This document shows, one piece after another, positions 1 through 64,000 of a stretch of 64,000 bases of DNA. The notes beneath the pieces are model-generated. The model saw only the letters and a list, made by a program, of their open reading frames with translations, did no database searches and was not told the DNA's origin. The stretch is from Macrostomum lignano (Eukaryota): the NCBI GenBank assembly GCA_002269645.1, contig NIVC01000010.1, forward strand, positions 1,178,001 to 1,242,000. Reading direction: 5' to 3'. Each line of letters opens with the position of its first letter. The first letter of the stretch is position 1. Both the position numbers and the translations under genes were made by a program.

Positions 1-1151
1 ATGATGCAGCAGTGATGGTGAACGGAGACTGGAGCATGAAGCTGGTCGCTGAGCTATCACCGATGGAGTTCACTGGATTGAACGAGTGGGCGCTGGCGAC
101 ACGCACAACTATTGGAACGAATGCAGAACGCGGTGTGGAGGACGAGCTGGTCGCAGTCGACATGATGAAGCGTCCTCAGCTTCCAGTGTCGAGCGAAGTA
201 GCGAGATCTGCGTGCTCCGAGAGAGCTCTCACGAACCTGTCCGCTCTGCAGCACAGTCTCGAGAGTGATCCATCGAGTGTGACTGCCAAACACGTACAGT
301 TCGAGACCTACCAAGCGAGGTCGCAGTCTCTGCACTCGGCTCTTGTTCAGCAGCCAGTGTACTTGCTTGCAAAGGCGGGCTTCTTCTACTCGGAAGCCGA
401 GAGAGCGACCTGCTGCTTCAGCTGCGGAGTTCGAATGAGCGAGTGGAGCTGCGACGATGATGTGTGGGTTGAGCACGCCAGGTGGTCACCTCGGTGTCCT
501 CACGTGTTGTTGGAGCGAGGTAGCGACTTTGTGCAGACAGTGCACCGACTGTCGCCTCCCGTGCAGCACCCGACTTGTGGCGCCTCTGCTCAGCGTCCCA
601 CTGCAGTGGTACAGACGGACTCAACTGCATCAGCTGGTGCTGCGACTGTCGACGGGTCTGCAGTCCGCAGCAGTCGCGCAGATGAGGCTCTCGCAGTCAC
701 ACCTGGAGTCGAGTTCAGAGTCGAGGCCAGAGACATCAAGGCGAGAGCCGACCTGCCCGTTGTGAGACTGCTCACTCAGCTCGGATTCTCCGCTCTGCAA
801 GTGAGACTGTTCACAGAGCTGCATCTCAGACAGCGAGGCGATGACTTTGCCACATCGGAGCTGTTCCTCGACTTCATGCTCACCGAGAGCCGCCGCATGC
901 GCAAGCAGTCGCAGGATCCGGAGGCGTTCTTCGAGAGCAGGATGTCTCAGATTCGGGAGTCTCTGAACCAACAGCCGAGACCCCGAGACACAACCGACTG
1001 GAAGACGTGCAAGGTGTGCATGGACAAGGAGGTGAACATCATGCTGCTGGACTGTGGTCACGTGGCCTGCTGCTCAGTGTGCGCCAAGTCGCTGAAGACG
1101 TGCCCCATCTGCAGAGCCTTCATTCGTGGGGTGGTATTTGTGCAAATGTGA
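1..1151 (+). CDS. IAP family protein copy 1 (5'-partial): BIR1-BIR2 linker, BIR2, UBA-like region, C-terminal RING
   Basis: Frame is open from the window edge and matches the internal part of the other copies. BIR motif C-FS-C-x16-H-x6-C, UBA-like LPVVRLLTQLGFS, RING CKVC..CGH..C..C..CPIC. The start lies upstream of the window. Confidence 0.93.
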   Translation, partial: DAAVMVNGDWSMKLVAELSPMEFTGLNEWALATRTTIGTNAERGVEDELVAVDMMKRPQLPVSSEVARSACSERALTNLSALQHSLESDPSSVTAKHVQFETYQARSQSLHSALVQQPVYLLAKAGFFYSEAERATCCFSCGVRMSEWSCDDDVWVEHARWSPRCPHVLLERGSDFVQTVHRLSPPVQHPTCGASAQRPTAVVQTDSTASAGAATVDGSAVRSSRADEALAVTPGVEFRVEARDIKARADLPVVRLLTQLGFSALQVRLFTELHLRQRGDDFATSELFLDFMLTESRRMRKQSQDPEAFFESRMSQIRESLNQQPRPRDTTDWKTCKVCMDKEVNIMLLDCGHVACCSVCAKSLKTCPICRAFIRGVVFVQM

Positions 1152-2843
1152 GTTGCAGTCGACCGATTGGATACAGGTTGATTAGCAACTTCTTCTGACT
1201 CGATATGTGATTTGTATGTCGGTGGCAAATGCACCAGAGAACTTGTAAAAAAGCTGCAACGTTGCTTCAACAGAAAAAATCATTCGTAGTCGGATGAATA
1301 AATCAATATTTGGTGAAGTAGGACAAAGCTTACATGGGAATTTCAGCTACGAGTATGTTGAAAGAAAGTGAGTTCTTCGTTCGGTGAATTATTCTAAGCT
1401 GCAATATCTAGAACGAAAGTAGGTGAATGCACAATATTCTTAAGAAATAAGCAATGGACTTTCTTACGCTTTTTAAAACTAATGGAACTTGCCCTCGGGA
1501 TGCTTTCAATGTTGACTCTCTTTTGTACAGATATGGATATCAATATGAGATCAATATTTTATGAGTGCAAGAGAGTGGCCTACGCCTGAAGAAAGCGACA
1601 TAAGTTTTTATAAAAGGATTTGTTTTCGGACTTTCAATACCGGAACTCATCAATGAAACATTTGCAATGTTTTTTATATGGAATTGCGAAGCTTTGAAAG
1701 CTAAAGACTGCTGCTGAAGTATTCGAAGCCGAGAGTTATAGTGTGCTTTCATCAGTCGTCGCAACAGTTCGCTTTTCATATCAAAAGCTTTGAACGTTGA
1801 CTCCAATCAAAATGACTTACTGTTTCTGAAAAAGTTCACAGATTTCGGCATGGGACTCAAGCCAGAACGGAAGTCGGTGACGTCATGAATTGCAAAAATC
1901 TGTATAGCTTTTGCATAGATTTTGCGATGAGACGCCTTTTTGAGAACTTGGACCTCTGATCTTTGATTTTCAATCCATTTAAAGTAACAAATATTTTATT
2001 CTCACTAAGTTATCGTACAAGTAGCTTATCGCAGTAGGAATATTTGCAAATTTTAATAGAAGTAAATATTGTTTTCTTATATTATAATTTTAATTATATT
2101 ATACGCTCGTATTATTCACTGAATGGCTTGTCGGTACAATGTCATTGTAGTTTTCTTCATCTGATAATTATGTTGTGCATATGTAATGGAAGTACTTCGT
2201 GTAAGGCTTTCGATAGATTTAAAACATCTGAACGCATTTGTCCGTGAACGGAAAGAATCCACTGTACGGTACATCGAATCGCTTTACATGACACATCATC
2301 GCCAATTTGAATAGTTTTGATTCTTGCAAAAGAAAAGGCATGATAGTATGAAAGAAATGTTAACGAAGTTTAGTGGCTATGTTTGTAAATTGAATTGGAA
2401 TGGAACTTTTATTAAGGTATTTTTTAACTGTTCCAGCAGGCTCCTACCTCGTTATCCTTATCCTTCACACTCCAATCTCTTTCTTTCTTTTTTCATCAGA
2501 TCCTCTTTGATCCTAGTCTGCTTCCACCCTACTCTCCACCGTAATCTGCATCCTCTACCTCTCGCACTACCGTTATGATGTTCTATCTCATTTGCCTACA
2601 TTTTCACACTAAAAAACGTAGGCAAACAGTTAAAAAAGTCTCGTAAAGTCAAGAAGCCAGCTCATGCAGCTTCAGATGGTGCTGCGGTGCCAGTGAGCCA
2701 ACAAAGTCCGGCCGTTCCATTGAAGCCATCAGAGGCCATTACTTATACGATGCAGATGACTTCAGGCTTGGTCCCGCCCGAATTGAAGTCCTGAAGGTAC
2801 TGGGCGAAATAACCGTTAGCCCCCGCACCCTTGAATCGCGGCA

Positions 2844-7479: not shown

Positions 7480-9435
7480 ATGAATCATCTCAACTTTCGA
7501 AGCGTGTTTCAGTGGCAATTGGACTCATCTTATTCAACTCAAACGGTCCAAATTCAAAATCAATCCCAGCGACAAGCCGTAGACATCAGCGATGTTGAGC
7601 TCACTAGCAATGCGGTCATGGAAACAGCAGATTTTAATAGAGCTCAATCAACAGACAATACAATATCAAACCCAAGTGTTAAAAATTCATTAGCTGTTGC
7701 ACAAAAAGCCATAGCTGACACAGAAATGGCCAAGCAGCGAATGCTCATAGCAGCTCAGCATCGAGTTTCAACATACTTTGGTACACCTGACGCGCGACAA
7801 TTGGTACAAACAGGTAAGAGCAAGGTACTGCGGTACTACAACAACAGCACACCTGGTGGCAGAGCGTCCTCCGTGCCGCAGACTCTGGACTTCCGCAATC
7901 AGCGATGGGACACGAGTGGAATGCCGGCCTCGATTCCACAACACCTGTGGGACATGAGACGAGAGGAGAACAGGTGGCAGTCCTTCCACCTGCCAGATGC
8001 CAGCTTCACAGCGGCTCACCTGGTGTCAGTGACGGATCTGGCTGCTGACGGATTCTTCTACCTGCAGGAGTCGGACAGAGTAAAGTGTGCATTCTGCAAG
8101 GGTGTGCTCAAGGACTGGGAGGCGGGCGAGCAGGTCCGAGAGGCTCACAGACGCCACTTCTCCACCTGTCCGTTCGTGTTGTTCGTCGAGGTCGGCAACG
8201 TGCCTCGAGACCACAGAGAGCCGGAAGGAGTCTCGAGGTCAGCAAAGCTGGTAGAGGCAGTGCAATGCTGTGATCAGACTGCAGATGATGATGCAGCAGT
8301 GATGGTGAACGGAGACTGGAGCATGAAGCTGGTCGCTGAGCTACCACCGATGGAGTTCGCTGGACTGAACGAGTGGGCGCTGGCGACACGCGAAACTCGT
8401 GCATCGAATGCAGAATGCGTTGTGGAGGAGCTGGTCGCAGTCGACATGATAAAGCGTCCTCAGCTTCCAGTGTCGAGCGAGGTAGGGAGATCTGCGTGCT
8501 CCGAGAGAGCTCTCACGAACCTGTCCGCTCTGCAGCACAGTGTCGAGAGTGATCCATCGAGTGTGACTGCCAAACACGCACAGTTCGAGACCTACCAAGC
8601 GAGGTCGCAGTCTCTGCACTCGGCTCTCGTTCAGCAGCCAGTGTACTTGCTTGCAAAGGCGGGCTTCTTCTACTCGGAAGCCGAGAGAGCGACCTGCTGC
8701 TTCAGCTGCGGACTCTGCATGAGCGAGTGGAGCTGCGACGATGATGTGTGGGTTGAGCACGCCAGGTGGTCACCTCGGTGTCCTCACGTGTTGTTGGAGC
8801 GAGGCAGCGACTTTGTACAGACAGTGCACCGACTGTCGCCTCCCGTGCAGCACCCGACTTGTGGCGCCTCTGCTCAGCGTCACACTGCATTGGTACAGAC
8901 GGACTCAACTGCATCAGCTGGTGCTGCGACTGTCGACGGGTCCGCAGTCCGCAGCAGTCGCGCAGACGAGGCTCTCGCAGTCACACCTGGAGTCGAGTTC
9001 AGAGTCGAGGCCAGAGACATCAAGGCGAGAGCCGACCTGCCCGTTGTGAGACTGCTCACTCAGCTCGGATTCTCCGCTCTGCAAGTGAGACTGTTTACAG
9101 AGCTGCATCTCAGACAGCGAGGCGATGACTTTGCCACATCGGAGCTGTTCCTCGACTTCATGCTCACCGAGAGTCGCCGCATGCGCAAGCAGTCGCAGGA
9201 CCCGGAGGCGTTCTTCGAGAGCAGGATGTCTCAGATTCGAGAGTCTCTGAACCAACAGCCGAGACCCCGAGACACAACCGACTGGAAGACGTGCAAGGTG
9301 TGCATGGACAAGGAGGTGAACATCATGCTGCTGGACTGTGGTCACGTGGCCTGCTGCTCAGTGTGCGCCAAGTCGCTGAAGACGTGTCCCATCTGCAGAG
9401 CCTTCATTCGTGGCTCAGTGTTTATTAAGATGTAA
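7480..9435 (+). CDS. IAP family protein copy 2, 651 aa (110-aa leader + BIR1, BIR2, UBA-like, RING)
   Basis: Intact single-exon ORF with two CX2CX16HX6C BIR motifs (LAADGFFY..CAFC; LAKAGFFY..CFSC) and a C3HC4 RING. Confidence 0.95.
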   Translation: MNHLNFRSVFQWQLDSSYSTQTVQIQNQSQRQAVDISDVELTSNAVMETADFNRAQSTDNTISNPSVKNSLAVAQKAIADTEMAKQRMLIAAQHRVSTYFGTPDARQLVQTGKSKVLRYYNNSTPGGRASSVPQTLDFRNQRWDTSGMPASIPQHLWDMRREENRWQSFHLPDASFTAAHLVSVTDLAADGFFYLQESDRVKCAFCKGVLKDWEAGEQVREAHRRHFSTCPFVLFVEVGNVPRDHREPEGVSRSAKLVEAVQCCDQTADDDAAVMVNGDWSMKLVAELPPMEFAGLNEWALATRETRASNAECVVEELVAVDMIKRPQLPVSSEVGRSACSERALTNLSALQHSVESDPSSVTAKHAQFETYQARSQSLHSALVQQPVYLLAKAGFFYSEAERATCCFSCGLCMSEWSCDDDVWVEHARWSPRCPHVLLERGSDFVQTVHRLSPPVQHPTCGASAQRHTALVQTDSTASAGAATVDGSAVRSSRADEALAVTPGVEFRVEARDIKARADLPVVRLLTQLGFSALQVRLFTELHLRQRGDDFATSELFLDFMLTESRRMRKQSQDPEAFFESRMSQIRESLNQQPRPRDTTDWKTCKVCMDKEVNIMLLDCGHVACCSVCAKSLKTCPICRAFIRGSVFIKM

Positions 9436-11817
9436 TTTGCTTAAACATTAACTTAGTTTTCGTTTTAAACATAATATAATTTAGCAGTGTCTGTAATTTT
9501 TCTTTCGGGTATTGACCCAAAATTATTGACCCCACCTGTGCCTTCATGAATTTATAATCTATTTAGAAATTTTCTTCCTTTTTTATTCTTCATTCTTTAT
9601 TTTCCTCGCTTGTTGCCTTCTAAAATAAATTTAATTCGCTGTACTTATCTTTCATCAAAAAATGAATCATAGGAAATAATATTGCTGTTCTTTGCTTTAA
9701 TTCTGTTTCTACGCTGTTATTACCGCGTGCGCATGCTTCGTACCCCATATCCTTGATTTTTATCGTACTCGTACTCGTACATTTTCAATGGTTATTTGCT
9801 TGTGAACGGGAACCAAAATAAATAGATTCTCCTTAATTGTAGCTTTTAACGCGCGTGTAATGCAAGCTAAAAGCTACTGTTGTAAGAAAGAAGACCCCAA
9901 TTTCATATGTATTGCAGTCTTCTACATTTTTTGTTGAGATTAAAGATGATAGCTACGGAATAGCTATCATATAGCGAATACTCTAACTGAGAATTACAGA
10001 ATCGGGTTTAATATCCTACATGTACATAAGCATGGCTTGTTATAAATCAGATTGAGCTATAAATGTATGTGAAACTGGAAGTTTCAGGCTGTACATTAAT
10101 GGAAAAATCGAGCAGAATAGTACCTGAATAAAACCGGAATAGTAAGAGATTGTCGTCAGAAATGCTTTGTGAAAATCTTTCTGACATTGTTTTCGAGTAA
10201 CCCGGAGATAAAAACCTGGACATATACGGTGAACCTGCACTTGTCTAGATGATAATGCTTTGGAGAAGGTCGGTCGCAAGGGTTCAGAGAGAACACATGA
10301 TTGAGAAAAAAGAATCCATACCTGTATAAAAAAACTTCTCGGATTAAAAATAAAAAGGGGATAAATAACATATTATCACGAGTAAGATGAGGCGCCGCGG
10401 CCTATATATCGCATAATTGGATGGCATCAAAATTCCATGAATTTTGTTAGTAATGTAAACAAAAGTTAAATTTGTCATGCAGATTAGGCAAGACTCCAGC
10501 TGTTGAATTTTCCAGGCTCAGTGGAGCGTTCGTGTTATCAAAGCTGGGCTATTCAAGATTCTTCTGGATATACAAGTACGAGCGTAAGTAGAATGATGGA
10601 TATAAATTTTTATACACCATGTATTTTATGTACATGTAGACCTAGCGAAGGGGTAGATTGAAATTAACCGATGTTGATCCTTGACTAATAAGACAATACT
10701 CTAGATAGAAAATACTAAAACAATACTACGAGCGTAAAATGAAGCTTTTGATCGTTTTCACTAAACTTAGTCTTTGTTGAACGGTTGAGTATATAGATGT
10801 ACGACGTATTCGATATTTATTCTCGTATTTCGCAGAAGGAACCAGTTCCCTAAGCATACATGTACATGTATACCTGACCAAGTCTTACATGTAATTGGAT
10901 TTCGCAAATCTCATTCTGTAGCATCTGAAAGTGAGCCACCGCTACATTGTAAGCAGTAAATTATTTTGGAGAAAATTAAAGTTACCATCATTTCGTCACA
11001 AGCAGCTCATCGTGTAGCCGATAGCAAATGAAAATAATAATGCTTTCAAATAAATTGTTTTACTTGAGTATCAAGCGTATTTTCTTCTTCATTTAGTTCA
11101 AACTCCACGGTGGTCATCAATTGTTAGCATAGAAGCAATGATTTAGATGTAAATTGCAAGTAAATGTACATGTACATGTATATAGCCATACTGCTTATAT
11201 AAAGTGGTAGGAATTGAAGCTACGTCGACAAAAAAGTTACTCTTTGTATTTTGTGTTTCTCCCAGTAATAATGCGCGCCTGCTTCTGTTTTTTGTTTTTT
11301 TCTGCCATGGGTTCTTCCCGTACAGCAATCTGACGTCGTGCATGGTGACGTCTGGCCGTCGATGTCAGGTTGTACTTTCACATTACGCCAACGTCGGATT
11401 GCTGTACGAGCTTGTCTGTCCCACCCTGTAGTCCCGCGTTGTTAGAAATGACAAGCCAAGGCGAGCAATTGCTATGAAACGAGAATCACGACAGTTCTGA
11501 GCCAATGCTCAGTGCGAAACTATTTATTATCAACGATAAAGCACAAACCCGCGACAACCCCCCAACCCAGGACTAAAACTCACCGCACTGCACATCAGAG
11601 CACGATGACAATAATAATTTGACGCGTACACTCACACAGAACAAAAGTACAAGCACCAGTGGAATGAGCAATCAGAGTAAACAGTGCGAAGCCCCGCCCA
11701 AGCCCAACACGCGTCATCCTGCACTGGTTTCACTCGGTGGGTCCTCATTTATCACCCGGGCGTACCCCCCCCCCCTTTCGTATCCGGTGGCTCATGAAAG
11801 CCTACATCTTCTTCTAA

Positions 11818-12630
11818 TCTAAATATACTAAATCTCTAAGGTTTGTTTGTTTGTTTGTATGTTTGTCCATAACGCTCTAGAGATTGCAATTCTTCACCGA
11901 TTTTGATCGTGTTTTCGCCAAAAGATTCAAAATCTATCTAAATATACTAAATCTCTAATATTTGTATGCTTGCTTGCTTGTCCATAACGCTCTAGAGACT
12001 GCAATTCTTCACCGATTTTGATCGCGTTTTCACCAAAAGATTCAAAATTGTCTGGAAAGAAGACAGTTAAAATTTCTTGTATCTGCTTTAATGCTAAAGG
12101 GATTAAATATTCGAAAAACTGTTTTAAATGGCCTTTTTCAATGCAAATTTTATCAGCGAGAAACTTCACTGCCAATTTTAATTGATTGCGCCAGAGCGAA
12201 CTGATAAGAAAACTCACTGGGCCCCACTTAAAGGGGGGCAATAAAAAATTATTCTGGCTGCTGGCAGCCAGCTCTAATTAGCTAGTCTAAATATACTAAA
12301 TCTCTAAGGTTTGTATGTTTGAATGTCCATAACGCTCTAGAGACTGCAATTCTTCACCGATTTTGATCGCGTCTTCGCCAAAAGATTCAAAATTGTCTGG
12401 AAAGAAGACGGTTAAAATTTCTTGTATCTGCTTCAATGCTAAAGGGATTAAATATTCGAAAAACAGTTTTAAATGGCCTTTTTCAATGCAAATTTTATCA
12501 GCCAGAAACTTCACTGCCAATTTTAATTGATTGCGCCAGAGCCAACTGATAAGAAAACTCACTCGGCCCCACTTAAAGGGGGGGCAATAAAAATTATTCT
12601 GGATGCTGGCAGCCAGCTCTAATTAGCTAG
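11818..12630 (+). mobile_element. Non-autonomous Helitron type A: one 5' stub plus two ~345-bp units head to tail
   Basis: 5' A|TCTAAATATACTAAATC starts at 11818, 11937, 12286. 3' ends have hairpin GCTGGC-A-GCCAGC then CTAG|T at 12285 and 12630. Confidence 0.8.
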
Positions 12631-13164
12631 TCTATCATCACAATATACTAAATCTCTAAAAGTCTAAGATCTGTCTGTCTGTCTGACCGGTATTCCAGTC
12701 CACAGCCTGAATGCCTGAACCGATTTTTTTCAAACTTGCTTTATTCAATTGCAAATTCTTGTGAGATTGTGTAGGTGTAATTGCATTGAAAAATTCGAAT
12801 GAGAAGTTGGTTAAATATTCGAAAAACGAGTTTTTTTAATGCTTTCAATGGGAGGCTAGAAAAGGTCAAAATCTCACTGACTGAATTTCAATTCCAATTA
12901 AGATTGCGCCACAACTATTCTCTGTTCACTGTGTACGCCTCAATACTGGCTGCAATAAGGGAGAGGAAAATAATGCTCAGTGGCTGCGTGTGTACATTCT
13001 GACCCTGGCTGACTGGCGGACTGCATAGACAATTGCTATTAATAGATTTCACTCAACTGTGCATTGGATCTGCCTGCATACAACCTGTGCACACTGAGCA
13101 GCCTATCACTGCTATGTATTTGACTGCAGTGCCGAAGCATATATGGCTGATTTTTGCGCCCTCC

Positions 13165-13250
13165 GATCAGTAGGCGGAATAGCCACATTGTAGGCACTAG
13201 GACTAGGTTTAGGCTAGGCAATAAGGTCCAAGGTTCGAGTCCGCCTCCCC
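13165..13250 (+). other. tRNA-like (Pol III A/B-box) segment inside Helitron; further copies at ~17368-17452, ~20513-20600, ~38212-38300
   Basis: TAGCC(G/A)CAgTG A-box-like motif and GGTTCGAGTCC B-box; no convincing cloverleaf. Confidence 0.5.
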
Positions 13251-16500: not shown

Positions 16501-16857
16501 GTAATCTGATGAGGATTTGAAAATAACGAATAATCATAAAAGAACTAAAAATGAATTGACATTGCAAAGTTTCAAACATTAAGAAATGTAACTTTTTAGA
16601 ACTTTTTAGTCTCAGTAAATTTGGTGTACAACTGCTTAGATATTTGCTACTGCAGAACTGCCCGGAGATTAGTGAGATTTGCTCAGCGACTGTGCAAAAC
16701 TGCTTATAGACAAGCGCTAAACTGCTAAGAAGCCACCCGGAGGGGGGCTAAATGGCTAGTCTAAATATACTAAATCTCTAATATTTGTATGCTTGCTTGT
16801 CCATAACGCTCTAGAGATTGCAATTCTTCACCGATTTTGATCGCGTTTTCGCCAAAA

Positions 16858-44310: not shown

Positions 44311-44967
44311 GTCTTGGGGATGTTTTCTATTTAGGGGGAATGTCTGTATCTTTGTAAAATTCAGGTGGAATTTAGGGGGAATCTTTGTGAAAACTATATT
44401 TTGTTGTCTTTCTGTTAATTTAAAAAAAGTAAGAGATTCATAGCAAACATCTTTGTTCATGACAATTTTACTCGAATAAGGTGGTTTATAAAACTGAAGA
44501 AGGAATTGGTTCTTAAGAAAATGTGCTTTTTTAATTGTTTTATATAAATATTTTTGCTCCTTGCTTATTGCGCGCCCCGAAGGGGGGCACTAGATTGCTA
44601 GTAGCAATAGCTAAATTTAGATAGTTACAAGTGTAGACAATGATACAATCAAGTGTAGCCTAAATAAATGAACTTTAACATTGATAATAGCTTAGAAAAA
44701 GAGCTAATTGTCTTTAATTCTTTAGTATAGCATATTGGTGAATATCTAGATATCTAGATATATCATACTTGTTTCATGTCCATGTTGCGCTCCTATTGGC
44801 TGAAAGGCTTATCTGTTTGATAGTTCTGAATTAATGTACTGACCCATTTCAGTGTAAACTTGCTAACCAAGTAAATATCAAAAAAATTCAGAGACACCTG
44901 CAGCCACAAACTACGCTGTCAAATCATTTTGCTGCATACCGCTTTGTAGCAGTTCAATTTGTGAAAA

Positions 44968-46926
44968 ATGACGAACTTAATGTCAGTTAGTAATTGGCTA
45001 ACAGACTCCGCCGTCAATCAACCGCAAAATGTAGTACTAAATAACACATTCGCCACATCAGAGAGGGATTCCGATATATTAGACTATGAGATTACGAGCA
45101 ATGCTGTCATACCAACTGAGGCATTGATACCAATATTACCTACTCCATGCAACTTAGCAAACAATAGTACGAAAGACTCCTTAGCTGTTGCACTGAAAGC
45201 CATAGCTGACACTGAAATGCCTAAGCAGCGAATGCTCATAGCAGCTCAGCTTCGAGCTTCAACATACTTTGGTACATCTGACGCGCGACAATTGGTACAA
45301 ACAGGTAAGAGCAAGGTACTGCGGTACTACAACAACAGCACACCTGGTGGCAGAGCGTCATCCGTGCCGCAGACTCTGGACTTCCGCAATCAGCGATGGG
45401 ACACGAGTGGAATGCCGGCCTCGATTCCACAACACCTGTGGGACATGAGACGAGAGGAGAACAGGTGGCAGTCCTTCCACCTGCCGGATGCCAGCTTCAC
45501 AGCGGCTCACCTGGTGTCAGTGACGGATCTGGCTGCTGACGGATTCTTCTACCTGCAGGAGTCGGACAGAGTAAAGTGTGCATTCTGCAAGGGTGTGCTC
45601 AAGGACTGGGAGGCGGGCGAGCAGGTCCGAGAGGCTCACAGACGCCACTTCTCCACCTGTCCGTTCGTGCTGTTCGTCGAGGTCGGCAACGTGCCTCGAG
45701 AACACAGAGAGCCAGAAAGAGTCTTGATTTCAGCAAAGATAGTAGAGGCAGTGCAATGCTGTGATCAGACTGCAGATGATGCAGCAGTGATGGTGAACGG
45801 AGACTGGAGCATGAAGCTGGTCGCTGAGCTATCACCGATGGAGTTCGCTGGACTGAACGAGTGGGCACTGGCGACACGCGAAACTCGTGGACCGAATGCA
45901 CGACGCGTTGTGGACGACGAGCTGGTCGCAGTCGACATGATGAAGCGTCCTCAGCTTCCAGTGTCGAGCGAAGTAGCGAGATCTGCGTGCTCCGAGAGAG
46001 CTCTCACGAACCTGTCCGCTCTGCAGCACAGTCTGGAGAGTGATCCATCGAGTGTGACTGCCAAACACGCACAGTTCGAGACCTACCAAGCGAGGTCGCA
46101 GTCTCTGCACTCGGCTCTCGTTCAGCAGCCAGTGTACTTGCTTGCAAAGGCGGGCTTCTTCTACTCGGAAGCCGAGAGAGCGACCTGCTGCTTCAGCTGC
46201 GGACTTTGCATGAGCGAGTGGAGCTGCGACGATGATGTGTGGGTTGAGCACGCCAGGTGGTCACCTCGGTGTCCTCACGTGTTGTTGGAGCGAGGTAGCG
46301 ACTTTGTGCAGACAGTGCACCGACTGTCGCCTCCCGTGCAGCACCCGACTTGTGGCGCCTCTGCTCAGCGTCACGCTGCAGTGGTACAGACGGACTCAAC
46401 TGCATCAGCAGGTGCTGCGACTGTCGACGGGTCTGCAGTCCGCAGCAGTCGCGCAGACGAGGCTCTCGCAGTCACACCTGGAGTCGAGTTCAGAGTCGAG
46501 GCCAGAGACATCAAGGCGAGAGCCGACCTGCCCGTTGTGAGACTGCTCACTCAGCTCGGATTCTCCGCTCTGCAAGTGAGACTGTTCACAGAGCTGCATC
46601 TCAGACAGCGAGGCGATGACTTTGCCTCATCGGAGCTGTTCCTCGACTTCATGCTCACCGAGAGCCGCCGCATGCGCAAGCAGTCGCAGGACCCGGAGGC
46701 GTTCTTCGAGAGCAGGATGTCTCAGATTCGGGAGTCTCTGAACCAACAGCCGAGACCCCGAGACACAACCGACTGGAAGACGTGCAAGGTGTGCATGGAC
46801 AAGGAGGTGAACATCATGCTGCTGGACTGTGGTCACGTGGCCTGCTGCTCAGTGTGCGCCAAGTCGCTGAAGACGTGCCCCATCTGCAGGGCCTTCATTC
46901 GCGGCTCCCTATTTTTTCGTGAGTGA
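44968..46926 (+). CDS. IAP family protein copy 3, 652 aa (111-aa leader + BIR1, BIR2, UBA-like, RING)
   Basis: Intact single-exon ORF with the same domain motifs; leader homologous to that of copy 2. Confidence 0.95.
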   Translation: MTNLMSVSNWLTDSAVNQPQNVVLNNTFATSERDSDILDYEITSNAVIPTEALIPILPTPCNLANNSTKDSLAVALKAIADTEMPKQRMLIAAQLRASTYFGTSDARQLVQTGKSKVLRYYNNSTPGGRASSVPQTLDFRNQRWDTSGMPASIPQHLWDMRREENRWQSFHLPDASFTAAHLVSVTDLAADGFFYLQESDRVKCAFCKGVLKDWEAGEQVREAHRRHFSTCPFVLFVEVGNVPREHREPERVLISAKIVEAVQCCDQTADDAAVMVNGDWSMKLVAELSPMEFAGLNEWALATRETRGPNARRVVDDELVAVDMMKRPQLPVSSEVARSACSERALTNLSALQHSLESDPSSVTAKHAQFETYQARSQSLHSALVQQPVYLLAKAGFFYSEAERATCCFSCGLCMSEWSCDDDVWVEHARWSPRCPHVLLERGSDFVQTVHRLSPPVQHPTCGASAQRHAAVVQTDSTASAGAATVDGSAVRSSRADEALAVTPGVEFRVEARDIKARADLPVVRLLTQLGFSALQVRLFTELHLRQRGDDFASSELFLDFMLTESRRMRKQSQDPEAFFESRMSQIRESLNQQPRPRDTTDWKTCKVCMDKEVNIMLLDCGHVACCSVCAKSLKTCPICRAFIRGSLFFRE

Positions 46927-50639: not shown

Positions 50640-51370
50640 AACTTCTCTGTTTTCTTCTCTCTCTTCTCTCCTCCTCTCGTGTCTCATCTCTTCTCTCCTC
50701 CTCTCGTGTCTCATCTTTTCTCTCCTCGTTCTTCTCTCCTTTCTTTTCTCATCTATCATCTACATGTATTATTTCGTCCTCCTCCTTCGTCTCTTCCTTC
50801 CTCTCTCCTCCGCTCTCTCATCTCTCCTCTGCTCTCTCATCTCTCCTCTGCTCTCTCATCTCCTCTCTGCTCTCATCTATTTTCTCTGCTCTCTTATCTC
50901 TTATCTCTCCTCCTTCCTCTCTCAGCTCTTATCTCTTCTCCTCTCTCAGTGGCGCAGCCAGGGGGCGGGGGCCTGCCTCCTCTTGAGATTACCCCCCCCC
51001 GAACTTCTGGAGAAAACCCCCCCCCTCCCCGAATTTTTCGGCTTATCAGAACACTCCCTCTTGGTGCTGAATGGGCCCACCGAAATAAATTCCTGGCTTC
51101 GCCACTGTCCTCTATTCTCTCTCTCCCCTCTCCTCTCTCTTATTCTCTTCTCTCATTCCTCTCTCTTCCTATTTTCTTCCCTCTTCTCTCCCCCGATCTC
51201 TCTTCTCTACTCTCTCCCTTCTTCTTTTTTCTCTTGTCTCTTCTCTCTCCTCTCTTTTCTCTTCGTCTCTGCTCTCTCATCTCTCATCTCTACTCTCTCC
51301 TCTCTTCTCTTCTCTCTACTCTCTCTAGTCTCTAGTCTCTCTCTTCTCTCCCCTCTCTCCCCTTTTCTTT
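50640..51370 (+). repeat. Pyrimidine-rich (TC) low-complexity tract
   Basis: CTCT-rich sequence; the source of the spurious L/S-rich ORFs. Confidence 0.9.
50947..51107. mobile_element. hAT-type MITE with termini related to the 35341-35643 element, CpG intact
   Basis: TIRs CAGTGGCGCAGCCAGG / CCTGGCTTCGCCACTG; 8-bp TSD TCCTCTCT/TCCTCTAT. Confidence 0.75.
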
Positions 51371-52249
51371 CCTATCGACTATCCGGCCTGGTGGAGGAAG
51401 CTAACAAGATCGGCAGAGCCTGCGTGCCAGCTAGCATTAGCAAGTGCTTCAGATTTCTCATGGCTGCAGACTTTCTGCTCTTGGTTTCAATTTTTAATCT
51501 CAAGCTTCAAAACTCAATACAGAGTCTCTCCTTTGCCTCATAATGCAGACCATAATTTATACTCGCGCTTATCAATGGGTCCATAATCTTCGAGCGAATA
51601 ATAGTTGAGTCCAGTGTGACGGCTTTACCCGACCACACTCTCTGCCGAACGCAGCCCCACCATTGGCCGCATTGGTCTTCAGTGCAGAACTTCACAACTA
51701 TTACCAATATCTCACCAGTGTAGCAAAATTTTACTATTGTTTAATTACATCACCGCTTACTATTCCTGTTGAGATTATCTCTCCTATAATATGATAATTT
51801 TACATTTATACTCCATCACAAAATGTCTAACCTCAATAAAAAATGGTGAACGATATAGGGTCTAGAAGTCCGCAAGTAGGGTTTAGCAATCCGCTAATAT
51901 AGGTCACATATAATAAAAGGAACGCCAAAGCGAGGTGAGGTTAAGGAGTGCCATAAGTGAAAGTGAAAAGCTAAGGCGCATAAGTGAAACGATTAGAGAT
52001 CAGTCAGTGCGAGGACATAACTCTGATAATAATTTAACAGCCACCCTCCAATCCAGATACCAGGCCAAGCGAGTTGATATCAACGTCAGCCGAGTTACCG
52101 AGCAAAGCCAGTTACTGTTGACAAACTCGCCTCACAAAAATTGCACTCTTTTAAAATTTAAATGAAGGCTAGGTAAACATGCAAGCTCGATGAATAAAGG
52201 AAGCTTGATTTTCCCGACCTGTGGGATTCACCGGCCTAAAGGATAGGGC

Positions 52250-52770
52250 TGGGGGCGCCGACAAGGAGACAGAGTTGTCGACAAGGAGACGGGGGCTCCG
52301 ACAAGGAGACAGTGGCGCCGACCAAGACACAGGAGCGCCGACCAAGAGACAGTGGCGCCGAACAAAGACAGGGGCGCCGACAAGGAGACAGGGGCGCCGA
52401 GAAGGAGACAGGGGCGCCGACAAGGAGACAGGGGCGCCGACAAGGAGACAGGGGCGCCGACAAGGAGACAGGGGCGCCGACAAGGAGACAGGGGCGCCGA
52501 CAAGGAGACAGGGGCGCCGACAAGGAGACAGGGGCGCCGACAAGGAGACAGGGGCGCCGACAAGGAGAAAGAGGCGCCGAACAAAGACAGGGGCGCCGAC
52601 AAGGAGACAGGGGCGCCGACAAGGAGAAAGGGGCGCCGACAAGGAGACAGGGCTGTCGACAAGGAGACAGGGGAGATAGGGCCGCCGGCCAAGAGACAGG
52701 GGCGCCGGCCAAGAGACAGGGGCACCGGCCAAGAGACAGGGGCGTCGACCAGAGACAGGGGCGCCCGTCA
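52250..52770 (+). repeat. GC-rich 21-bp minisatellite (GGCGCCGACAAGGAGACAGGG)n
   Basis: Visible array; all frames open because the unit is a multiple of 3 with no stops. Confidence 0.95.
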
Positions 52771-53734
52771 AGACACTAAAGAGGGCTGCTGTAGCCGGTC
52801 CAATTAAAATTCCCGCGTACGCCATCGGCATTAAACAACATGAATCATCAAGTGTCGCATTTTAAGCTCCGTTGCAAAAATTGTATATTAAAATACAGTT
52901 ATCGGTGTAATAAAATATCAGAAGGTAATCTTCATTTAAAGTGTAGAAATAAATTACATAATATTACTGTAAGGCGTCAAAATGGAAACATGCAATGCAA
53001 TATAATATCAACACAATACGAGTATCCGAGAGAAAGATCTTTTAAAGTTTTAAGGTTTGCATATGATTTATTTTATACGACGCATTATCTAGCTGTCTTG
53101 TTTTAGTTTTCAATTTTCCATCCCCAGCCAATCACAGGGAACTCCGCCTGCAGCTGTCCTGATCGATTCATCCTATATGAAAAAGATAGAATTAAAAAAA
53201 CATGCTGTAAGAAAGTTCAATTCTGAAGTACATCAAGATTTCATTACATTATGCTCGTAGACTGCGGGGTACTTCATTTTCAGTTAGAAGCAGAGATTAC
53301 ACGTACATGTAGAGTTCCCTACATGAATTGCTTTCACCAATAAATTCATTTGAATCTTCAAATAAAAATACGGGTATTCAAGACCGAAAATGCCATTTAA
53401 CACGCAGCTTCGACTCTCAATAAACATAGACTGCATCTTTAGTGCGTAACGCGTGAGAAGAACTGCATATACAAGCATTTCCATCGATAGCATTTGAAAC
53501 TTAATACTGTTTAAAAGCAAAACGTAAAAATTATTTCTAGAAGCTAACTGCCGTGCACAGTAACGTACAATACACATGTATATCTACTAATCGACTCCTT
53601 CAGAAAAGTACAATTTTATAAAGAATCCAGCAAGCACTTGTGCTGTCATTACTGAAAAAACAAAAGGCGTTATGACGGAGCCATTGCGACCCATCAAAAA
53701 GTAGAATTCACAGTCCACCTCCTGTATGAGTTTA

Positions 53735-55861
53735 TCAGTCCCGCAGAAAAAGTACACCCCGAATGAAGGCTCTGCAGATGGGGCACGTCTTCAACGACTT
53801 GGCGCACACGGAGCAGCAGGCCACATGACCACAGTCCAGCAGCATGATGTTCACCTCCTTATCCATGCACACCTTGCACGTCTTCCAGTCGGTTGTGTCT
53901 CGGGGTCTTGGCTGTTGGTTCAAAGACTCTCGAATCTGAGGCATCCTGCTCTCGAAGAACGTCTCCGGATCCTGCGACTGTTTGCGCATGCGGCGGCTCT
54001 CGTTGAGCATGAAGTCGAGGAACAGCTCCGATGTGGCAAAGTCATCGCCTCGCAGTCTGAGATGCAGCTCTGTGAACAATCTCACTTGTAGAGCGGAGAA
54101 TCCGAGTTGAGTGAGCAGTCTCACAACGGGCAGGTCGGCTCTCGCCTTGATGTCTCTGGCCTCGACTCTGAACTCGACTCCAGGAGTGACTGCGAGAGCC
54201 TCGTCTGCGCGACTGCTGCGCAATACGGACCCGTCGACAGTCGCAGCACCTGCTGATGCAGTTGATTCCGTCTGTACCAATGCAGTGTGACGCTGAGCAG
54301 AGGCGCCACAAGTCGGGTGCTGCACGGGAGGCGACAGTCGATGCACTGTCTGCACAAAGTCGCTACCTCGCTCCAACAACACGTGAGGACACCGAGGTGA
54401 CCACCTGGCGTGCTCAACCCACACATCATCGTCGCAGCTCCACTCGCTCATGCGAAGTCCGCAGCTGAAGCAGCAGGTCGCTCTCTCGGCTTCCGAGTAG
54501 AAGAAGCCCGCCTTTGCAAGCAAGTACACTGGCTGCTGAACGAGAGCCGAGTGCAGAGACTGCGACCTCGCTTGGTAGGTCTCGAACTGTGCGTGTTTGG
54601 CAGTCACACTCGATGGATCACTCTCGAGACTGTGCTGCAGAGCGGACAGGTTCGTGAGAGCTCTCTCGGAGCACGCAGATCTCGCTACTTCGCTCGACAC
54701 TGGAAGCTGAGGACGCTTCATCATGTCGACTACGACCAGCTCGTCGTCCACAACGCGTCGTGCATTCGGTCCACGAGTTTCGCGTGTCGCCAGTGCCCAC
54801 TCGTTCAGTCCAGCGAACTCCATCGGTGGTAGCTCAGCGACCAGCTTCATTCTCCAGTCTCCGTTCACCATCACTGCTGCATCATCTGCAGTCTGATCAC
54901 TGCACTGCACTGCCTCTACCAGCTTTGCTGACCTCGAGTCTCCTTCCGGCTCTCTGTGTTCTCGAGGCACGTTGCCGACCTCGACGAACAGCACGAACGG
55001 ACAGGTGGAGAAGTGGCGTCTGTGAGCCTCTCGGACCTGCTCGCCCGCCTCCCAGTCCTTGAGCACACCCTTGCAGAATGCACACTTTACTCTGTCCGAC
55101 TCCTGCAGGTAGAAGAATCCGTCAGCAGCCAGATCCGTCACTGACACCAGGTGAGCCGCTGTGAAGCTGGCATCTGGCAGGTGGAAGGACTGCCACCTGT
55201 TCTCCTCTCGTCTCATGTCCCACAGGTGTTGTGGAATCGAGGCCGGCATTCCACTCGTGTCCCATCGCTGATTGCGGAAGTCCAGAGTCTGCGGCACGGA
55301 GGACGCTCTGCCACCAGGTGTGCTGTTGTTATAGTACCGCAGTACCTTGCTCTTGCCTGTTTGATTTCGAATCGCTGCATTGAGGTGTTCATGCAATCTT
55401 CTGCTACCTTTTAGTGCGTAATCAGCTGCAATTTTTTGAAGCTCAAGTAAGACATCCGGATTTTTGTTTTTTTCAACAGCTTGTTTGGCGATGGTGTACG
55501 TTATTGTCTGCCTGAGTTCGTCAACCACTTGCAGGCTGGTTATTTCTTGGAAGAACTGAAAAATGGTTTCTCGTCTGCTCTCTGATGCGGCGTTTCTTTG
55601 ATTTGAAGTCAGATTTTGAAGCCAGCGCTCGGTGTTCAGAATGGAATTCCGTGTTCTCCATTGAGCCAGTGTAGTTGATGGCCTTCGAAAGTGTTCTGCT
55701 GCAAGAGAGGTTTATTTTGTGAGAATAATTTAATTTAAAAGCTGATCGGCAGTGGCAAAAGTTTTTTAAACGTTTCAACGAAGTAAAAATTGAATGAAAT
55801 TACCTGCGTTTCGGCGTCGATGCCTTTGCTGTCCGACGTTAGCAATTATAACAAGTGACAT
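53735..55861 (-). CDS. IAP family protein copy 4, predicted join(55861..55804, 55698..53735), 673 aa (132-aa leader)
   Basis: The track ORF starts at a GTG. An upstream ATG exon (MSLVIIANVGQQRHRRRNA G|GTAATT) splices in frame (phase 1, 105-nt intron) to acceptor CCTCTCTTGCAG|CAGAACAC. The core is intact. Confidence 0.85.
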
Positions 55862-57588: not shown

Positions 57589-57976
57589 GGAAAGGCAGCC
57601 ATCAGGAAGGAGCCGGCGCCCCCGCCCTCTGATGAGCGTCTCCGTAGGGTCTACAAGCACAAAATTAACAAATGCGCTGAAAATCGTAGCACGGAGACCA
57701 CACTCGCCCAACTCAGATGTGGTCAATGCAAGAAGACGGCCTACTGGCGACAAAAAATCGGTGCTGAGGCAAAGGCGAGTTGTCAGGACTGCGGTGAGGA
57801 AGAGGATAAGGACCACTGGGTGTGGTGCGACAGGTGGCATAAGGAGAGGGCGCGTTTTGGTATTCATGGTCTGGAGGATCTGGGAGATGAAGCGAAGGTG
57901 CTAGGGTTCCTGAAGTGCACGCACCCTGAGTGGGTGCAATGAGGGAACCCGCCCAGCCGAAGACGCACACGCACAC
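57589..57976 (+). mobile_element. 5'-truncated LINE 3' end (zinc knuckle) inserted into the RTE
   Basis: LAQLRCG..CQDCGEEEDKDHWVWC; (AC)-rich tail; 9-bp TSD ACGTCAACC at 57580-57588 and 57977-57985. Confidence 0.75.
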
Positions 57977-58610
57977 ACGTCAACCAGAGAGGCGGCTCAG
58001 CGTGCTTGGCTACGCCGACAACTTCGCCCTGCTGTTCTCAAGTGTCGAGGGCGCCCAGCGACAACTGAACAAGCTAGTTGCTGTTGTGGCGAGTGTCAGC
58101 CACTTGATCAACACGCAGAAAACCGTCGTGCTCTCGTGCTCTGCGTGCCGGATGACATCGAGGCTGCGATTTTGTGCCGAAGCACTGTTGGACAGGCGGC
58201 AGAGCTTCCGCGTTGTCAGCAGTTCGTCTACCTCGGCGGTCTGGTTTCCGTCGTCCGCGAAGATTTGCCGCGTCGCCGCGGGCTTGCCTGGGCTGCCTTT
58301 CGTTCTGTGAGGGCAGTCCTGCAGTACCTGACCGCCAGAGGGCGGCGTTGTTTTAGGCGGTGATCGAGACCGTCCTGTTATACAACGCCGAGACCTGGAC
58401 GCTGACGGAGTCGATCGAGCCGCAAGTTGACGCGGCGCACGCTGGCCTGCTGCGCGCCGCCTTCAAGATCGGCTACGAGCGAGTGACCAACGCGGCTTTG
58501 TATCGCCGCGCCAGTTTATTCCGTCCAAGCGACCTGTTGCGCCGTCGGCGACTCCAGCTGGCAGGCCACATCATCCGCGCCGAGTCGCACTGCCCACAGC
58601 CGGTGCAGGA

Positions 58611-59461: not shown

Positions 59462-60000
59462 CAGATAACGCTGATTTGTCCGAATCCAATGCTGTTCTGT
59501 CCGAATCCAATGCTGTTCTGTCCGAATCCAGTGCAGATCTGTCCGAATCCAATGCTGTTCTGTCCGAATCCAATGCAGATCTGTCCGAATCCAGAGCTGA
59601 TCTGTCCGAATCCAATGCTGTTCTGTCCGAATCCAGTGCAGATCTGTCCGAATCCAGTGCAGATCTGTCCGAATCCAATGCAGATCTGTCCGAATCCAAT
59701 GCAGATCGGCGGCAATCGAGTAACCGAGTGCCAGCTCGAAGCCTTCCTGCGCCCCTGTATCGTCAACGGAGTCCGCTGCCCGCCGGATTGCTCGATGAGC
59801 TATGAAAATATAGCGAATTACGAGCTACATGGAGAGCACCAAGATGTTCTCCAGAGCACTCGCTGGCGCGCTGCCCATGCAGGGAATGCGACTGCGAAGA
59901 CACCTGCAAGACTTGCAACCGTCGCTGCATGTACGCCATGATGAAGGTGCTCGTTCTCGAGTACAACGTCCCGGTCAGAATTCATGTTTACGAGTCTTAA
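59462..60000 (+). pseudogene. Degenerate Cys-rich coding sequence, possibly a SINA/SIAH-like zinc-finger remnant
   Basis: GC3-rich codons in IGGNRVTECQLEAFLRPCIVNGVRCPPDC..YELHGEH, then after a -1 shift RCPCRECDCEDTCKTCNRRC..YES*. Family resemblance judged by eye only. Confidence 0.3.
59465..59705 (+). repeat. 21-bp tandem repeat (CTGTCCGAATCCAATGCAGAT / ..GCTGTT), ~11 units
   Basis: Visible array. Confidence 0.9.
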
Positions 60001-61053
60001 ATGTGTTCACAAATAACTCACAGCTTGTTAGTTCATCGATCATTGAGTTCAACCGCTGAAGCGGTTTGTGGTACTTGCTTGGTAGTTGCCATAAAGAGAT
60101 GATCGAGGATCGAGAAAAGCGGGAAAACGCGGTACACCGTCTAAAAAAGAAATACTTTCATTGCCTAAAATAGCCTATGTGAAAGCAGTACTCCGAGAAA
60201 TAATCATGTGACAAGCGTCAAGCCAAGATTATTTATAGCTTTACAGCCCTAGCTTTAATTCAGGTTTTTATAGTTCATGCAAACAGCGAGTGTCGATCTT
60301 CCAGCGCACACTGTTTATCTTGTGCAGAGCTCCCCCGGCTTTTCCATGACTAGTGTACTGTACTGCATTGTACTCACGTGATAAAAATAACTGGCGGCTT
60401 TCCAATGAGTAAGTGTACGTTAATACGGCAGTGTAATTCAAGAGATAAAAATAGCGCTGACACTCAGGAAATTTCTAGAAGGTTCCATCAGATTGCTCCG
60501 ATTTAAACATATATAGATAACGAGCAAAAACTGGACTGTATTAAAGAATTACAATTCTAGCAGAATTACTAGAATTACAATCCGCTGGATTTAACGGAAA
60601 ATCGCCAACTCTATTTTATCTCATCGACTGAATCGTTACCTTGTAGTGGTGAGTGCTTAAAGCGTGTCTTATTCTTTGCTGAGATCATTTATCCGCTGTG
60701 AGGTCCCTAGATAGGCCACTCATTCAATGCTTTAGATACCATAAACTCTGATGAGAACTGGATCTATGGTCGAGACTAACTGAAATTTGTTATTTTTTTC
60801 AGTTTTAGAGCCGCGGAATGTGTCCAGAACCGTTTGAAGGACCACAGCGGTTCAACCAAGTAATTTTTGTCAAAGCATTGTGAACCATACTGTTTTTAAG
60901 CTATACTTGGAACTGCGTAAATTAGAGTAAAAATTTATTTTTACAGGCTGGCATTTATTGAGCCACTACCTTCCAAAACGTGCAGTTTTACAACGTCGTA
61001 ACATCATCATACCACTGAAATTTCAAAACGAAAACCCAAATTGTTAGTACACT

Positions 61054-62143: not shown

Positions 62144-64000
62144 ATGCACTCGACAAGACAACAAAGTTACTTCCCTCAAGCATCCGCCGGTGTGGCAAAG
62201 AAGTTTCGAGCGGCCAACGGAACAGGCAGCTCTGTGGAAAATATTATGCATTTAATTTCCAGTCTCACACAACCTGCAAGCGGCTGCAACTTCTATGTAA
62301 CTTTAGACGACAAAACACTTCAGCGGTTGAACTCAATGGTCGATGAGGTCACAAGCTGCACTCGAGACCGACTTCCGCTAGACAACATGGAACTAATTCA
62401 GGAACACCAAAAAATGAGCTTCACAGGTGAAATGTTTCAAAAGTTGCTTCAACATGCAGCCACAGAAATTTCAAAGTTCCTGATGATGAATGTTAGACAG
62501 AATACTCAGGCTTCAGAAATGAATTTACGGGCAGCGCAACAAGGAAATAAGGCTCAAACAGGTAAGAGCAAGGTGCTGCGGTACTACAACAACAGCACAC
62601 CTGGTGGCAGAGCGTCATCCGTGCCGCAGACTCTGGACTTCCGCAATCAGCGATGGGACACGAGTGGAATGCCGGCCTCGATTCCACAACACCTGTGGGA
62701 CATGAGACGAGAGGAGAACAGGTGGCAGTACTTCCACCTGCCAGATGCCAGCTTCACAGCGGCTCACCTGGTGTCAGTGACGGATCTGGCTGCTGACGGA
62801 TTCTTCTACCTGCAGGAGTCGGACAGAGTAAAGTGTGCATTCTGCAAGGGTGTGCTCAAGGACTGGGAGGCGGGCGAGCAGGTCCGAGAGGCTCACAGAC
62901 GCCACTTCTCCACCTGTCCGTTCGTGCTGTTCGTCGAGGTCGGCAACGTGCCTCGAGAACACAGAGAGCCGGAAGGAGACTCGAGGTCAGCAAAGCTGGT
63001 AGAGGCAGTGCAGTGCAGTGATCAGACTGCAGATGATGCAGCAGTGATGGTGAACGGAGACTGGAGAATGAAGCTGGTCGCTGAGCTACCACCGATGGAG
63101 TTCGCTGGACTGAACGAGTGGGCACTGGCGACACGCGAAACTCGTGGACCGAATGCACGACGCGTTGTGGACGACGAGCTGGTCGTAGTCGACATGATGA
63201 AGCGTCCTCAGCTTCCAGTGTCGAGCGAAGTAGCGAGATCTGCGTGCTCCGAGAGAGCTCTCACGAACCTGTCTGCTCTGCAGCACAGTGTCGAGAGTGA
63301 TCCATCGAGTGTGACTGCCAAACACACACAGTTCGAGACCTACCAAGCGAGGTCGCAGTCTCTGCACTCGGCTCTCGTTCAGCAGCCAGTGTACTTGCTT
63401 GCAAAGGCGGGCTTCTTCTACTCGGAAGCAGAGAGAGCGACCTGCTGCTTCAGCTGCGGACTTTGCATGAGCGAGTGGAGCTGCGACGATGATGTGTGGG
63501 TTGAGCACGCCAGGTGGTCACCTCGGTGTCCTCACGTGTTGTTGGAGCGAGGTAGCGACTTTGTACAGGCGGTGCATCGACTGTCGCCTCCCGTGCAGCA
63601 CCCGACTTGTGGCGCCTCAGCTCAGCGTCACACTGCATTGGTACAGACGGACTCAACTGCATCAGCTGGTGTTGCGACTGTCGACGGGTCCGCAGTCCAC
63701 AGCAGTCGCGCAGACGAGGCTCTCGCAGTCACTCCTGGAGTCGAGTTCAGAGTTGAGGCCAGAGACATCAAGGCGAGAGCCGACCTGCCCGTTGTGAGAC
63801 TGCTCACTCAACTCGGATTCTCCGCTCTGCAAGTGAGACTGTTCACAGAGCTGCATCTCAGACAGCGAGGCGATGACTTTGCCACATCGGAGCTGTTCCT
63901 CGACTTCATGCTCACCGAGAGCCGCCGCATGCGCAAGCAGTCGCAGGACCCGGAGGCGTTCTTCGAGAGCAGGATGTCTCAGATTCGAGAGTCTCTGAAC
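62144..64000 (+). CDS. IAP family protein copy 5 (3'-partial; 138-aa unique leader + BIR1, BIR2, UBA-like)
   Basis: Manually translated frame is open from ATG 62144 (MHSTRQQSYFPQ..GNKAQ) into TGKSKVLRYY and on to the window end; absent from the ORF track because it has no stop in the window. Confidence 0.9.
   Translation, partial: MHSTRQQSYFPQASAGVAKKFRAANGTGSSVENIMHLISSLTQPASGCNFYVTLDDKTLQRLNSMVDEVTSCTRDRLPLDNMELIQEHQKMSFTGEMFQKLLQHAATEISKFLMMNVRQNTQASEMNLRAAQQGNKAQTGKSKVLRYYNNSTPGGRASSVPQTLDFRNQRWDTSGMPASIPQHLWDMRREENRWQYFHLPDASFTAAHLVSVTDLAADGFFYLQESDRVKCAFCKGVLKDWEAGEQVREAHRRHFSTCPFVLFVEVGNVPREHREPEGDSRSAKLVEAVQCSDQTADDAAVMVNGDWRMKLVAELPPMEFAGLNEWALATRETRGPNARRVVDDELVVVDMMKRPQLPVSSEVARSACSERALTNLSALQHSVESDPSSVTAKHTQFETYQARSQSLHSALVQQPVYLLAKAGFFYSEAERATCCFSCGLCMSEWSCDDDVWVEHARWSPRCPHVLLERGSDFVQAVHRLSPPVQHPTCGASAQRHTALVQTDSTASAGVATVDGSAVHSSRADEALAVTPGVEFRVEARDIKARADLPVVRLLTQLGFSALQVRLFTELHLRQRGDDFATSELFLDFMLTESRRMRKQSQDPEAFFESRMSQIRESLN

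Follow-up and report, generated by a model that had tools for sequence, protein, structure and literature searches.

Introduction

Regional gene conversion has been described for fugu Pcdh2, one of the teleost clustered protocadherins, where GC content at third codon positions (GC3) is ~38-45% in the divergent part and 54-69% in the homogenised part, according to the portion of that account used here (PMC1852091). We analyzed a 64,000-nucleotide stretch of contig NIVC01000010.1 from Macrostomum lignano (the window), in which five long open reading frames (ORFs) are BIR-BIR-RING IAP genes. As that portion describes for fugu Pcdh2, the 5′ coding regions of these tandem paralogues are divergent and the 3′ ones homogenised, with a discrete boundary between the two within the reading frame, the homogenised part has the higher GC3, and different clusters are homogenised to different consensus sequences. 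In contrast to the >99% identity reported there, the M. lignano cores are 96-98% identical, so that mosaic tracts are visible. Moreover, the 5′ parts are far more diverged and mostly unalignable as DNA, a second edge lies six codons before the stop codon, and the copies lie in both orientations at distances of 7-37 kb, with three homoeologous arrays that allow a positional test. Regional conversion of the protocadherin type is a known process, seen here in IAP genes; we found no paper on these M. lignano genes in the open-access literature.

Tandem, largely intronless copies also characterize the IAP expansions of bivalves and other metazoans, as described in the pertinent sections of PMC13159474 (see also PMC8917759 and PMC7831173). 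The first of these, a 2026 survey, reports from a sample of four parasitic species that platyhelminthes have lost RING-IAPs, and its main text contains no occurrence of 'conversion', 'concerted' or 'Macrostomum'. Contrary to the claim in those sections, this M. lignano family alone has more than 20 BIR-BIR-RING cores. Because RING-IAPs are present and expanded in free-living M. lignano, the reported loss likely applies to the sampled parasitic lineages, which corrects the claim at the level of the phylum.

The window genes are old paralogues that contain mosaic, homogenised cores. We consider it very probable that non-allelic gene conversion, recurring in short tracts, has maintained the similarity of these near-identical 1.6-kb cores while the coding leaders and the last six codons have diverged.

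Mosaic variation in the IAP cores

The five copies have in common a core of ~1.61 kb that runs from the residues Q-T-G-K-S-K to six codons before the stop codon. Pairwise divergence of the cores is 2.0-3.9%, and the leaders and last six codons are strongly diverged. The window ends cut copies 1 and 5, the whole cores of which were completed from loci L003 and L004, respectively. The closest database relatives carry the label Macrostomum lignano, and the database search returned no full-length relative above 30% identity outside this species.

The initial annotation had noted variants with conflicting groupings: L(S/P)PMEF with S in copies 1 and 3 and P in copies 2, 4 and 5; ETRGPNARRVVDD limited to copies 3, 4 and 5; HS(L/V)ES with V limited to copies 2 and 5; GDW(S/R) with R limited to copies 4 and 5; and a leader that groups copy 2 with copy 3. 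Each of these is present, the last as 126 extra bp common to both copies at 91% identity. Across the whole cores there are 30 informative sites, which comprise seven two-versus-three splits and one three-state site. The splits, named by the paired copies, are 13 (11 sites), 45 (8), 14 (3), 12 (3), 25 (2), 24 (1) and 34 (1). In a four-gamete-type analysis of the aligned cores, 166 of the 435 site pairs were incompatible. The incompatible fraction increased with distance, from 0.03 at 0-20 bp to 0.15 at 21-50 bp, 0.20 at 51-100 bp and 0.43-0.47 beyond 100 bp (permutation p=0.0008). We simulated 300 alignments with rate heterogeneity on the fitted single tree, and none reached this far-minus-near contrast; neither did any of 100 alignments in a further simulation set. 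Thus, the claim that no single duplication tree fits is supported by the decay with distance but not by incongruence alone, as the overall level of incompatibility was reached in 15 of the 300 simulations. Incongruent amino acid variants by themselves are insufficient to reject one tree with hotspots.

A minimum of nine breakpoints is required among the five cores, and the nearest relative of each core changes every 200-400 bp. GENECONV-like runs were significant in two of the ten pairs (copies 4/5, p=0.0002; copies 3/4, p=0.0078). The longest run, in copies 4 and 5, spans 35 of the 95 polymorphic sites and 543 bp without a difference. Copy 5 differs from its positional twin L009 at 26 sites, 21 of which match copy 4, and 18 of these 21 lie inside the tract. 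Because most of these differences match copy 4, mainly inside the tract, copy 5 is the likely recipient.

Positional comparison of three arrays

A genome search gave 36 matches, among them 27 long cores and three 3′ fragments. Copies are arranged in the same order and orientation in each of three arrays (C10; C199; C3532 plus C4273). Leader and flanks distinguish nine slots, and four further copies, unlinked and ~11% away, provided an outgroup. The three arrays fit the three subgenomes described for this species, for which the section of the published account used here gives a coding single-nucleotide polymorphism (SNP) rate of 1.1% (PMC10733133). Our 17-core set omitted slots 0, 6 and 7, which are truncated or more diverged, and L018, which is identical to L016, was dropped from most tests. 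Distance-dependent incompatibility was found in each of the three arrays (p=0.0005 in each), and it persisted without copies 4 and 5 (p=0.0002, 15 cores) and among copies 1-4 (p=0.0038).

We compared cores with flanks in 14 positional pairs. The core was significantly more diverged than the flanks in three of them (26/1607 vs 0/750, 46/1607 vs 3/744 and 39/1607 vs 6/750) and significantly less diverged in another three (3.4% vs 14%, 3.8% vs 12.7% and 0.6% vs 2.0%), with no difference in the remaining eight. Core distance was mostly 2-4% whether the flanks were 0.4% or 14% apart. For 19 of the 22 positional pairs, 53-90% of the core differences were states also present in other slots; the other three had 0, 5 and 6 differences, of which 0, 1 and 1 were shared. 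The corresponding value for the unlinked outgroup control pair was 4 of 44. Trees grouping the cores by slot (approximately unbiased test, p=0.011) or by array (p=1e-76) were rejected. Positional twins therefore behave as conversion predicts, and the proposal of the initial annotation that ectopic conversion homogenises the core while the flanks diverge fits every test that we ran.

Mean synonymous polymorphism (pS) in the core is 0.07, deeper than the reported subgenome split, and much of the shared variation may predate polyploidy. Exchange between subgenomes is therefore not required, but recent events must be invoked for the twin pairs whose flanks are near-identical. Two pairs of positional twins (L006 and L008; L003 and L017) have flanks that are 13-14% apart. 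This is far above the genome-wide SNP rate of 2.2% reported for the species (PMC10733133), and these pairs are possibly old balanced haplotypes.

Coding leaders and the edges of the core

The leaders are open for at least 100 codons in frame in all slots. We also used contigs assembled from short words of sequencing runs, whose RNA or DNA nature is a guess. The intron in the copy 4 leader was joined out, with the frame kept, in contigs of both runs guessed to be RNA and in neither of the two guessed to be DNA. Core codons 1-50, which include the LRYY..PQ motif described below, mostly precede the first core Met and are under strong purifying selection, with a ratio of nonsynonymous to synonymous polymorphism (pN/pS) of 0.02. 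From the open frames, the spliced in-frame intron and the constraint on these codons, we conclude that the leaders are coding. An intron at the start of the core, where the sequence resembles the splice-donor consensus, was rejected; the joints listed for the run contigs include none at this position, and the contigs, which are weak evidence, join the leaders straight to the core.

Homology is clear for the leaders of slots 2, 2b and 3, which have 24-26 identical residues of 63-64 and yet are synonymous-saturated. Alignments surpassed those of shuffled sequences (p<0.01) in 12 of the 55 leader pairs. Slots 0, 1, 3 and 5 are connected by weaker homology, and the outgroup leader had no significant match to the others. 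A leader search gave six matches, all with cores; none was a leader without a core. Synonymous divergence (dS) in slots 2, 2b and 3 falls in steps from saturation in the leader to 0.17-0.22 in its last 42 codons and 0.05-0.08 in the core; overall, core dS is 0.05-0.09. Similarly, third-position identity of copies 2 and 3 across the 5′ edge is 20/60, then 38/45, then 59/60. Since the leaders are coding, partly homologous and saturated, the genes are old and their cores have been homogenised. In positional twins, the rate of leader evolution does not exceed that of the flanks.

The edges are staggered. At the 5′ side, common sequence extends a further 126 bp in slots 2 and 3, and a further 131 bp in L022 and L023 with slot 8 but not in their twin L020; at the 3′ side, slots 4-8 have 22 to 140 bp in common past the usual edge. 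The 126-bp leader block of copies 2 and 3 is likely an older tract that passed the usual edge. Slots 4, 5 and 6 have a common tail and 3′ untranslated region (UTR) and unrelated leaders. Every tail consists of six codons and a stop codon. Not every event looks like a pure core conversion; some resemble crossovers or tracts that extended an end.

GC3 also changes in a step, from 0.29-0.45 in leaders to 0.63-0.68 in cores; in L056, a BIR gene that appears not to be arrayed, it is 0.70-0.94. Weak-to-strong variants were at higher frequency (0.43 vs 0.16, p=8e-5), but the single outgroup lineage allows mispolarisation, which by a rough estimate affects ~15 sites compared with 12 high-frequency ones, and we do not trust the raw frequency test. 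The GC3 step is only suggestive as a signature of GC-biased conversion.

One contig of run X9 starts with the spliced-leader sequence given in the relevant part of PMC8629364, joined to copy 3 at an AG acceptor 116 nt 5′ of the ATG. This acceptor is likely the trans-splice site of copy 3 (Table 1). If used, the terminal ATG of the spliced leader would open an out-of-frame upstream ORF (44852-44990) that overlaps the start of copy 3.

Alternative explanations for the mosaic

Several observations weigh against conversion as the source of the mosaic. Besides the borderline overall incompatibility, a globally significant run was found in only two of the 136 pairs of the 17 cores, one of which is a positional pair. 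The leader of copy 4 had no significant match to any other leader among the 55 pairs. The positional test rests on homoeologous arrays of one genome in a single species, and array relationships switch along the cluster. In addition, the section of PMC10733133 on a published M. lignano assembly reports that 36% of its length lies in subgenome-chimeric scaffolds, and the near flanks of copy 5 are identical to another array for ~1050 bp upstream and 315 bp downstream, beyond which they are 2-3% apart. Finally, the five UniRef-matched copies alone gave p=0.035 at 50 bp and p=0.12-0.13 at 100 bp, and ten amino acid sites of the UniRef-only models gave p=0.078.

The switching affinities, the reported chimerism and the flanks of copy 5 are what would be expected if an assembler or polisher had made the mosaic by mixing reads of 97%-identical copies and three homoeologous arrays; likewise, the linker type of copies 3, 4 and 5 occurs in none of the seven UniRef-only models examined. 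However, separate contigs repeat whole mosaic haplotypes, with 0 substitutions in 1618 nt for L016/L018, 5 for L009/L011 and 10 for L001/L002. Five UniRef-only models, inferred to be independent of the assembly, match single copies at 85/86, 85/87, 86/90, 83/89 and 85/92 variable residues. The haplotypes of copy 3 and of six copies from the other arrays recur outside the contig, and the six or seven haplotypes attested twice, by a second contig or a UniRef-only model, are still mosaic (p=0.0002-0.0004). Contigs of run X11 carry the block of copies 1 and 3 (45684-45790) and the block of copies 3, 4 and 5 (54733-54824) with 0 differences. Read mixing also cannot explain 97%-identical cores in old genes with saturated leaders. 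Because doubly attested haplotypes stay mosaic, chimerism cannot explain the whole mosaic, and we regard an assembly artefact as an improbable source of it. For the tract of copies 4 and 5 alone, a chimera is appreciably more plausible, if still not the explanation that we favor, because the sequence on either side of it appears to have been homogenised with another array. Neither of two alleles restricted to copies 4 and 5 (54851, 54732) was seen in any of four runs; this result is uninformative, as the same runs collapsed copy 4 leader alleles that are 18 differences apart. No shorter second-annotation model of the copy 4 linker was found among 360 candidates. Summed contig depth was far above that of the flank in the core and was not taken as copy number.

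Repeated unequal crossing-over within the core, with birth and death of copies and swapping of leaders and tails, could also build a mosaic. L013 (G000 C199) joins the slot 2 tail and 3′ flank to a third, homologous leader type and a different upstream region and is likely a crossover chimera; contigs of runs X9 and X14 show its leader junction as a loose end. The slot 0 gene is absent from C10, where both flanks are present (L031:1500-7700) with no N and no remnant, several copies of the family are broken, and the common tail of slots 4, 5 and 6 beside unrelated leaders has the same implication. In contrast, slot order and orientation are kept in three arrays, inverted copies take part in exchange although crossovers there would invert the interval, and the cores switch relatives at short intervals with their own leader and tail retained. 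These findings make crossing-over a very unlikely sole origin of the mosaic. It is the other outcome of the same repair pathway and probably contributes; the crossover-like products, the lost slot and the broken copies show that birth and death are also at work.

An IAP cassette, either a retrocopy or a captured fragment, that was recently mobile, inserted at unrelated sites and recruited new leaders would account for intronless cores with sharp edges and for flanks that are mostly unalignable as DNA. This reading is already largely refuted and highly improbable. Both edges are inside the reading frame and are staggered, the leaders show homology at the protein level and occupy equivalent positions, and the tails are always six codons and a stop codon. 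There is no poly(A) (the longest A run is 4-6), and the only candidate target duplications in ten copies are 5-6-nt matches of chance size away from the junctions. Furthermore, such insertions would not produce distance-dependent incompatibility. A single tree of recent duplications, combined with mutational hotspots and very fast leader evolution, is favored by the borderline overall incompatibility but can be dismissed almost entirely given the distance decay, the few shared states in the outgroup control, saturated leaders beside cores with dS of ~0.05, and leaders that in positional twins do not outpace their flanks.

Proposed mechanism of homogenisation

We propose that recurrent conversion would operate through double-strand-break repair that uses a neighboring copy, in direct or inverted orientation, as template. 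The persistence of slot order and orientation suggests that repair would usually proceed without crossover. Surviving tracts would be mostly ~100-200 bp, since incompatibility plateaus at that distance, and now and then >500 bp. Exchange would halt where homology has decayed, so that the leader and tail escape, passively or by selection, and rare tracts or crossovers may shift the edge. Purifying selection would fix the pre-BIR motif, BIR1 and the RING, and the BIR1-BIR2 linker would be shuffled. A more speculative extension, about which we are doubtful, is conversion-driven diversification of cell-death or immune E3 ligases. Slots would keep by selection a fast-evolving helical leader and a RING tail, for choice of partner, location or dimer, and draw cores with a reshuffled inter-BIR linker from one pool across the subgenomes of a young polyploid, with independent repetition in other BIR clusters.

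Protein domains and constraint

Like cIAP1, cIAP2 and DIAP-type proteins, the copies have two BIR domains recognized by Pfam and a C-terminal RING. Two BIRs with the pattern CX2CX16HX6C and intact RING zinc ligands are present in all five copies (copy 5 from L004). The best solved RING matches are cIAP1 (6hpr, E 1e-16) and cIAP2 (3eb5, E 4e-16). Unlike those proteins, the window genes encode a paralogue-specific leader of 110-140 residues and an LRYY..PQ motif, and the Pfam scan gave no CARD or UBA match in the copies. Their domain content suggests that the proteins act as cIAP/DIAP-like E3 ubiquitin ligases. The leader matched no meaningful Pfam family, its best Atlas score was 0.84, and its AlphaFold model has a mean pLDDT (predicted local distance difference test) of 55 and one long helix. 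The LRYY..PQxL motif before BIR1 (45316-45375 and homologues) is also found in distant BIR genes of the genome and in IAPs of the nemerteans Tubulanus and Lineus, and it corresponds to no Pfam family.

Amino acid variety is concentrated in the BIR1-BIR2 linker, where pN/pS is 0.83-0.98 with an interval that includes 1, compared with 0.02-0.05 for BIR1 and RING. Positive selection on the linker was rejected on the basis of that interval; relaxed constraint is enough.

Other BIR clusters and implications

A second BIR-BIR-RING cluster (L051-L055; G000 C366, C2087, C59) is organized like the window family, with variable leaders of low GC3 and cores 2.4-5.8% apart, and its near/far incompatibility was significant (p=0.0085, 4 cores). 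The third cluster (L058-L063; G000 C103, C1340, C2791) contains single-BIR genes with eight cores whose BIR regions are 0.3-4.8% apart and whose N- and C-termini are unlike; its incompatibility test was not significant (p=0.26 on 10 sites). One type in this cluster ends in a RING-like motif.

With three homoeologous arrays as positional controls, the family is an unusually clean natural test bed for conversion between paralogues. Because both tract edges lie inside the gene, the part played by lost homology in placing them can be weighed against that of selection. Probes for RNA interference or quantitative PCR that are built on the cores are not copy-specific, and neither are gene trees or duplication dates derived from them.

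Features of the window

Table 1. Coordinates of the IAP copies and associated features in the window
Feature	Position	Strand	Remarks
Copy 1 IAP, 3′ part (BIR2, RING)	1..1151	+	core to 1129; private tail VVFVQM; stop 1149-1151; 5′ part and leader upstream of window (L003)
Copy 2 IAP ORF, BIR-BIR-RING	7480..9435	+	leader 7480-7806; core 7807-9413; tail SVFIKM
126-bp leader block common to copies 2 and 3 (91%)	7681..7806 (copy 2), 45172-45297 (copy 3)	+	dS 0.17 vs saturated further 5′
AG acceptor, likely trans-splice site of copy 3	44851..44852	+	loose end of run X9 contig is the published spliced-leader sequence
Copy 3 IAP ORF	44968..46926	+	leader 44968-45297; core 45298-46904; tail SLFFRE
Variant block of copies 1 and 3	45714..45832	+	most of copy 1 counterpart upstream of window; run not significant globally (p=0.44)
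Variant block of copies 3, 4 and 5 (ETRGPNARR)	45833..45928	+	counterparts 54733-54828 and 63090-63185; copies 3/4 global p=0.0078
Copy 4 IAP, inverted	53735..55861	-	ATG 55861; exon 1 55861-55804; core 55363-53757; tail VLFLRD
105-nt intron, GT..AG, copy 4 leader	55699..55803	-	frame kept; joined out in run contigs
543-bp tract identical in copies 4/5, likely donor side	54645..55187	-	copy 4
Copy 5 IAP	62144..64000	+	leader 62144-62554; core from 62555; RING and tail past window end (L004)
543-bp tract identical to copy 4, likely recipient side	62731..63273	+	copy 5 departs from positional twins L009/L011 toward copy 4

The DNA between the copies consists of minisatellites and degraded repeats. 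Nested tandem duplications and minisatellites with units of 17, 18, 20, 21, 22, 23, 30 and 45 bp occupy the interval from copy 2 to copy 3 and extend beyond it (11800-30600, 37700-44350, 48450-52800 and 59470-59710). Within copy 3, contigs of runs X9 and X11 skip 109 nt at 46343-46453, which points to a family member with a deletion that is present as DNA. A weak reverse-transcriptase trace lies near 57930-58307. Between copies 4 and 5, a 52-bp remnant on the minus strand (~60020-60071) is 87% like part of the copy 5 leader.

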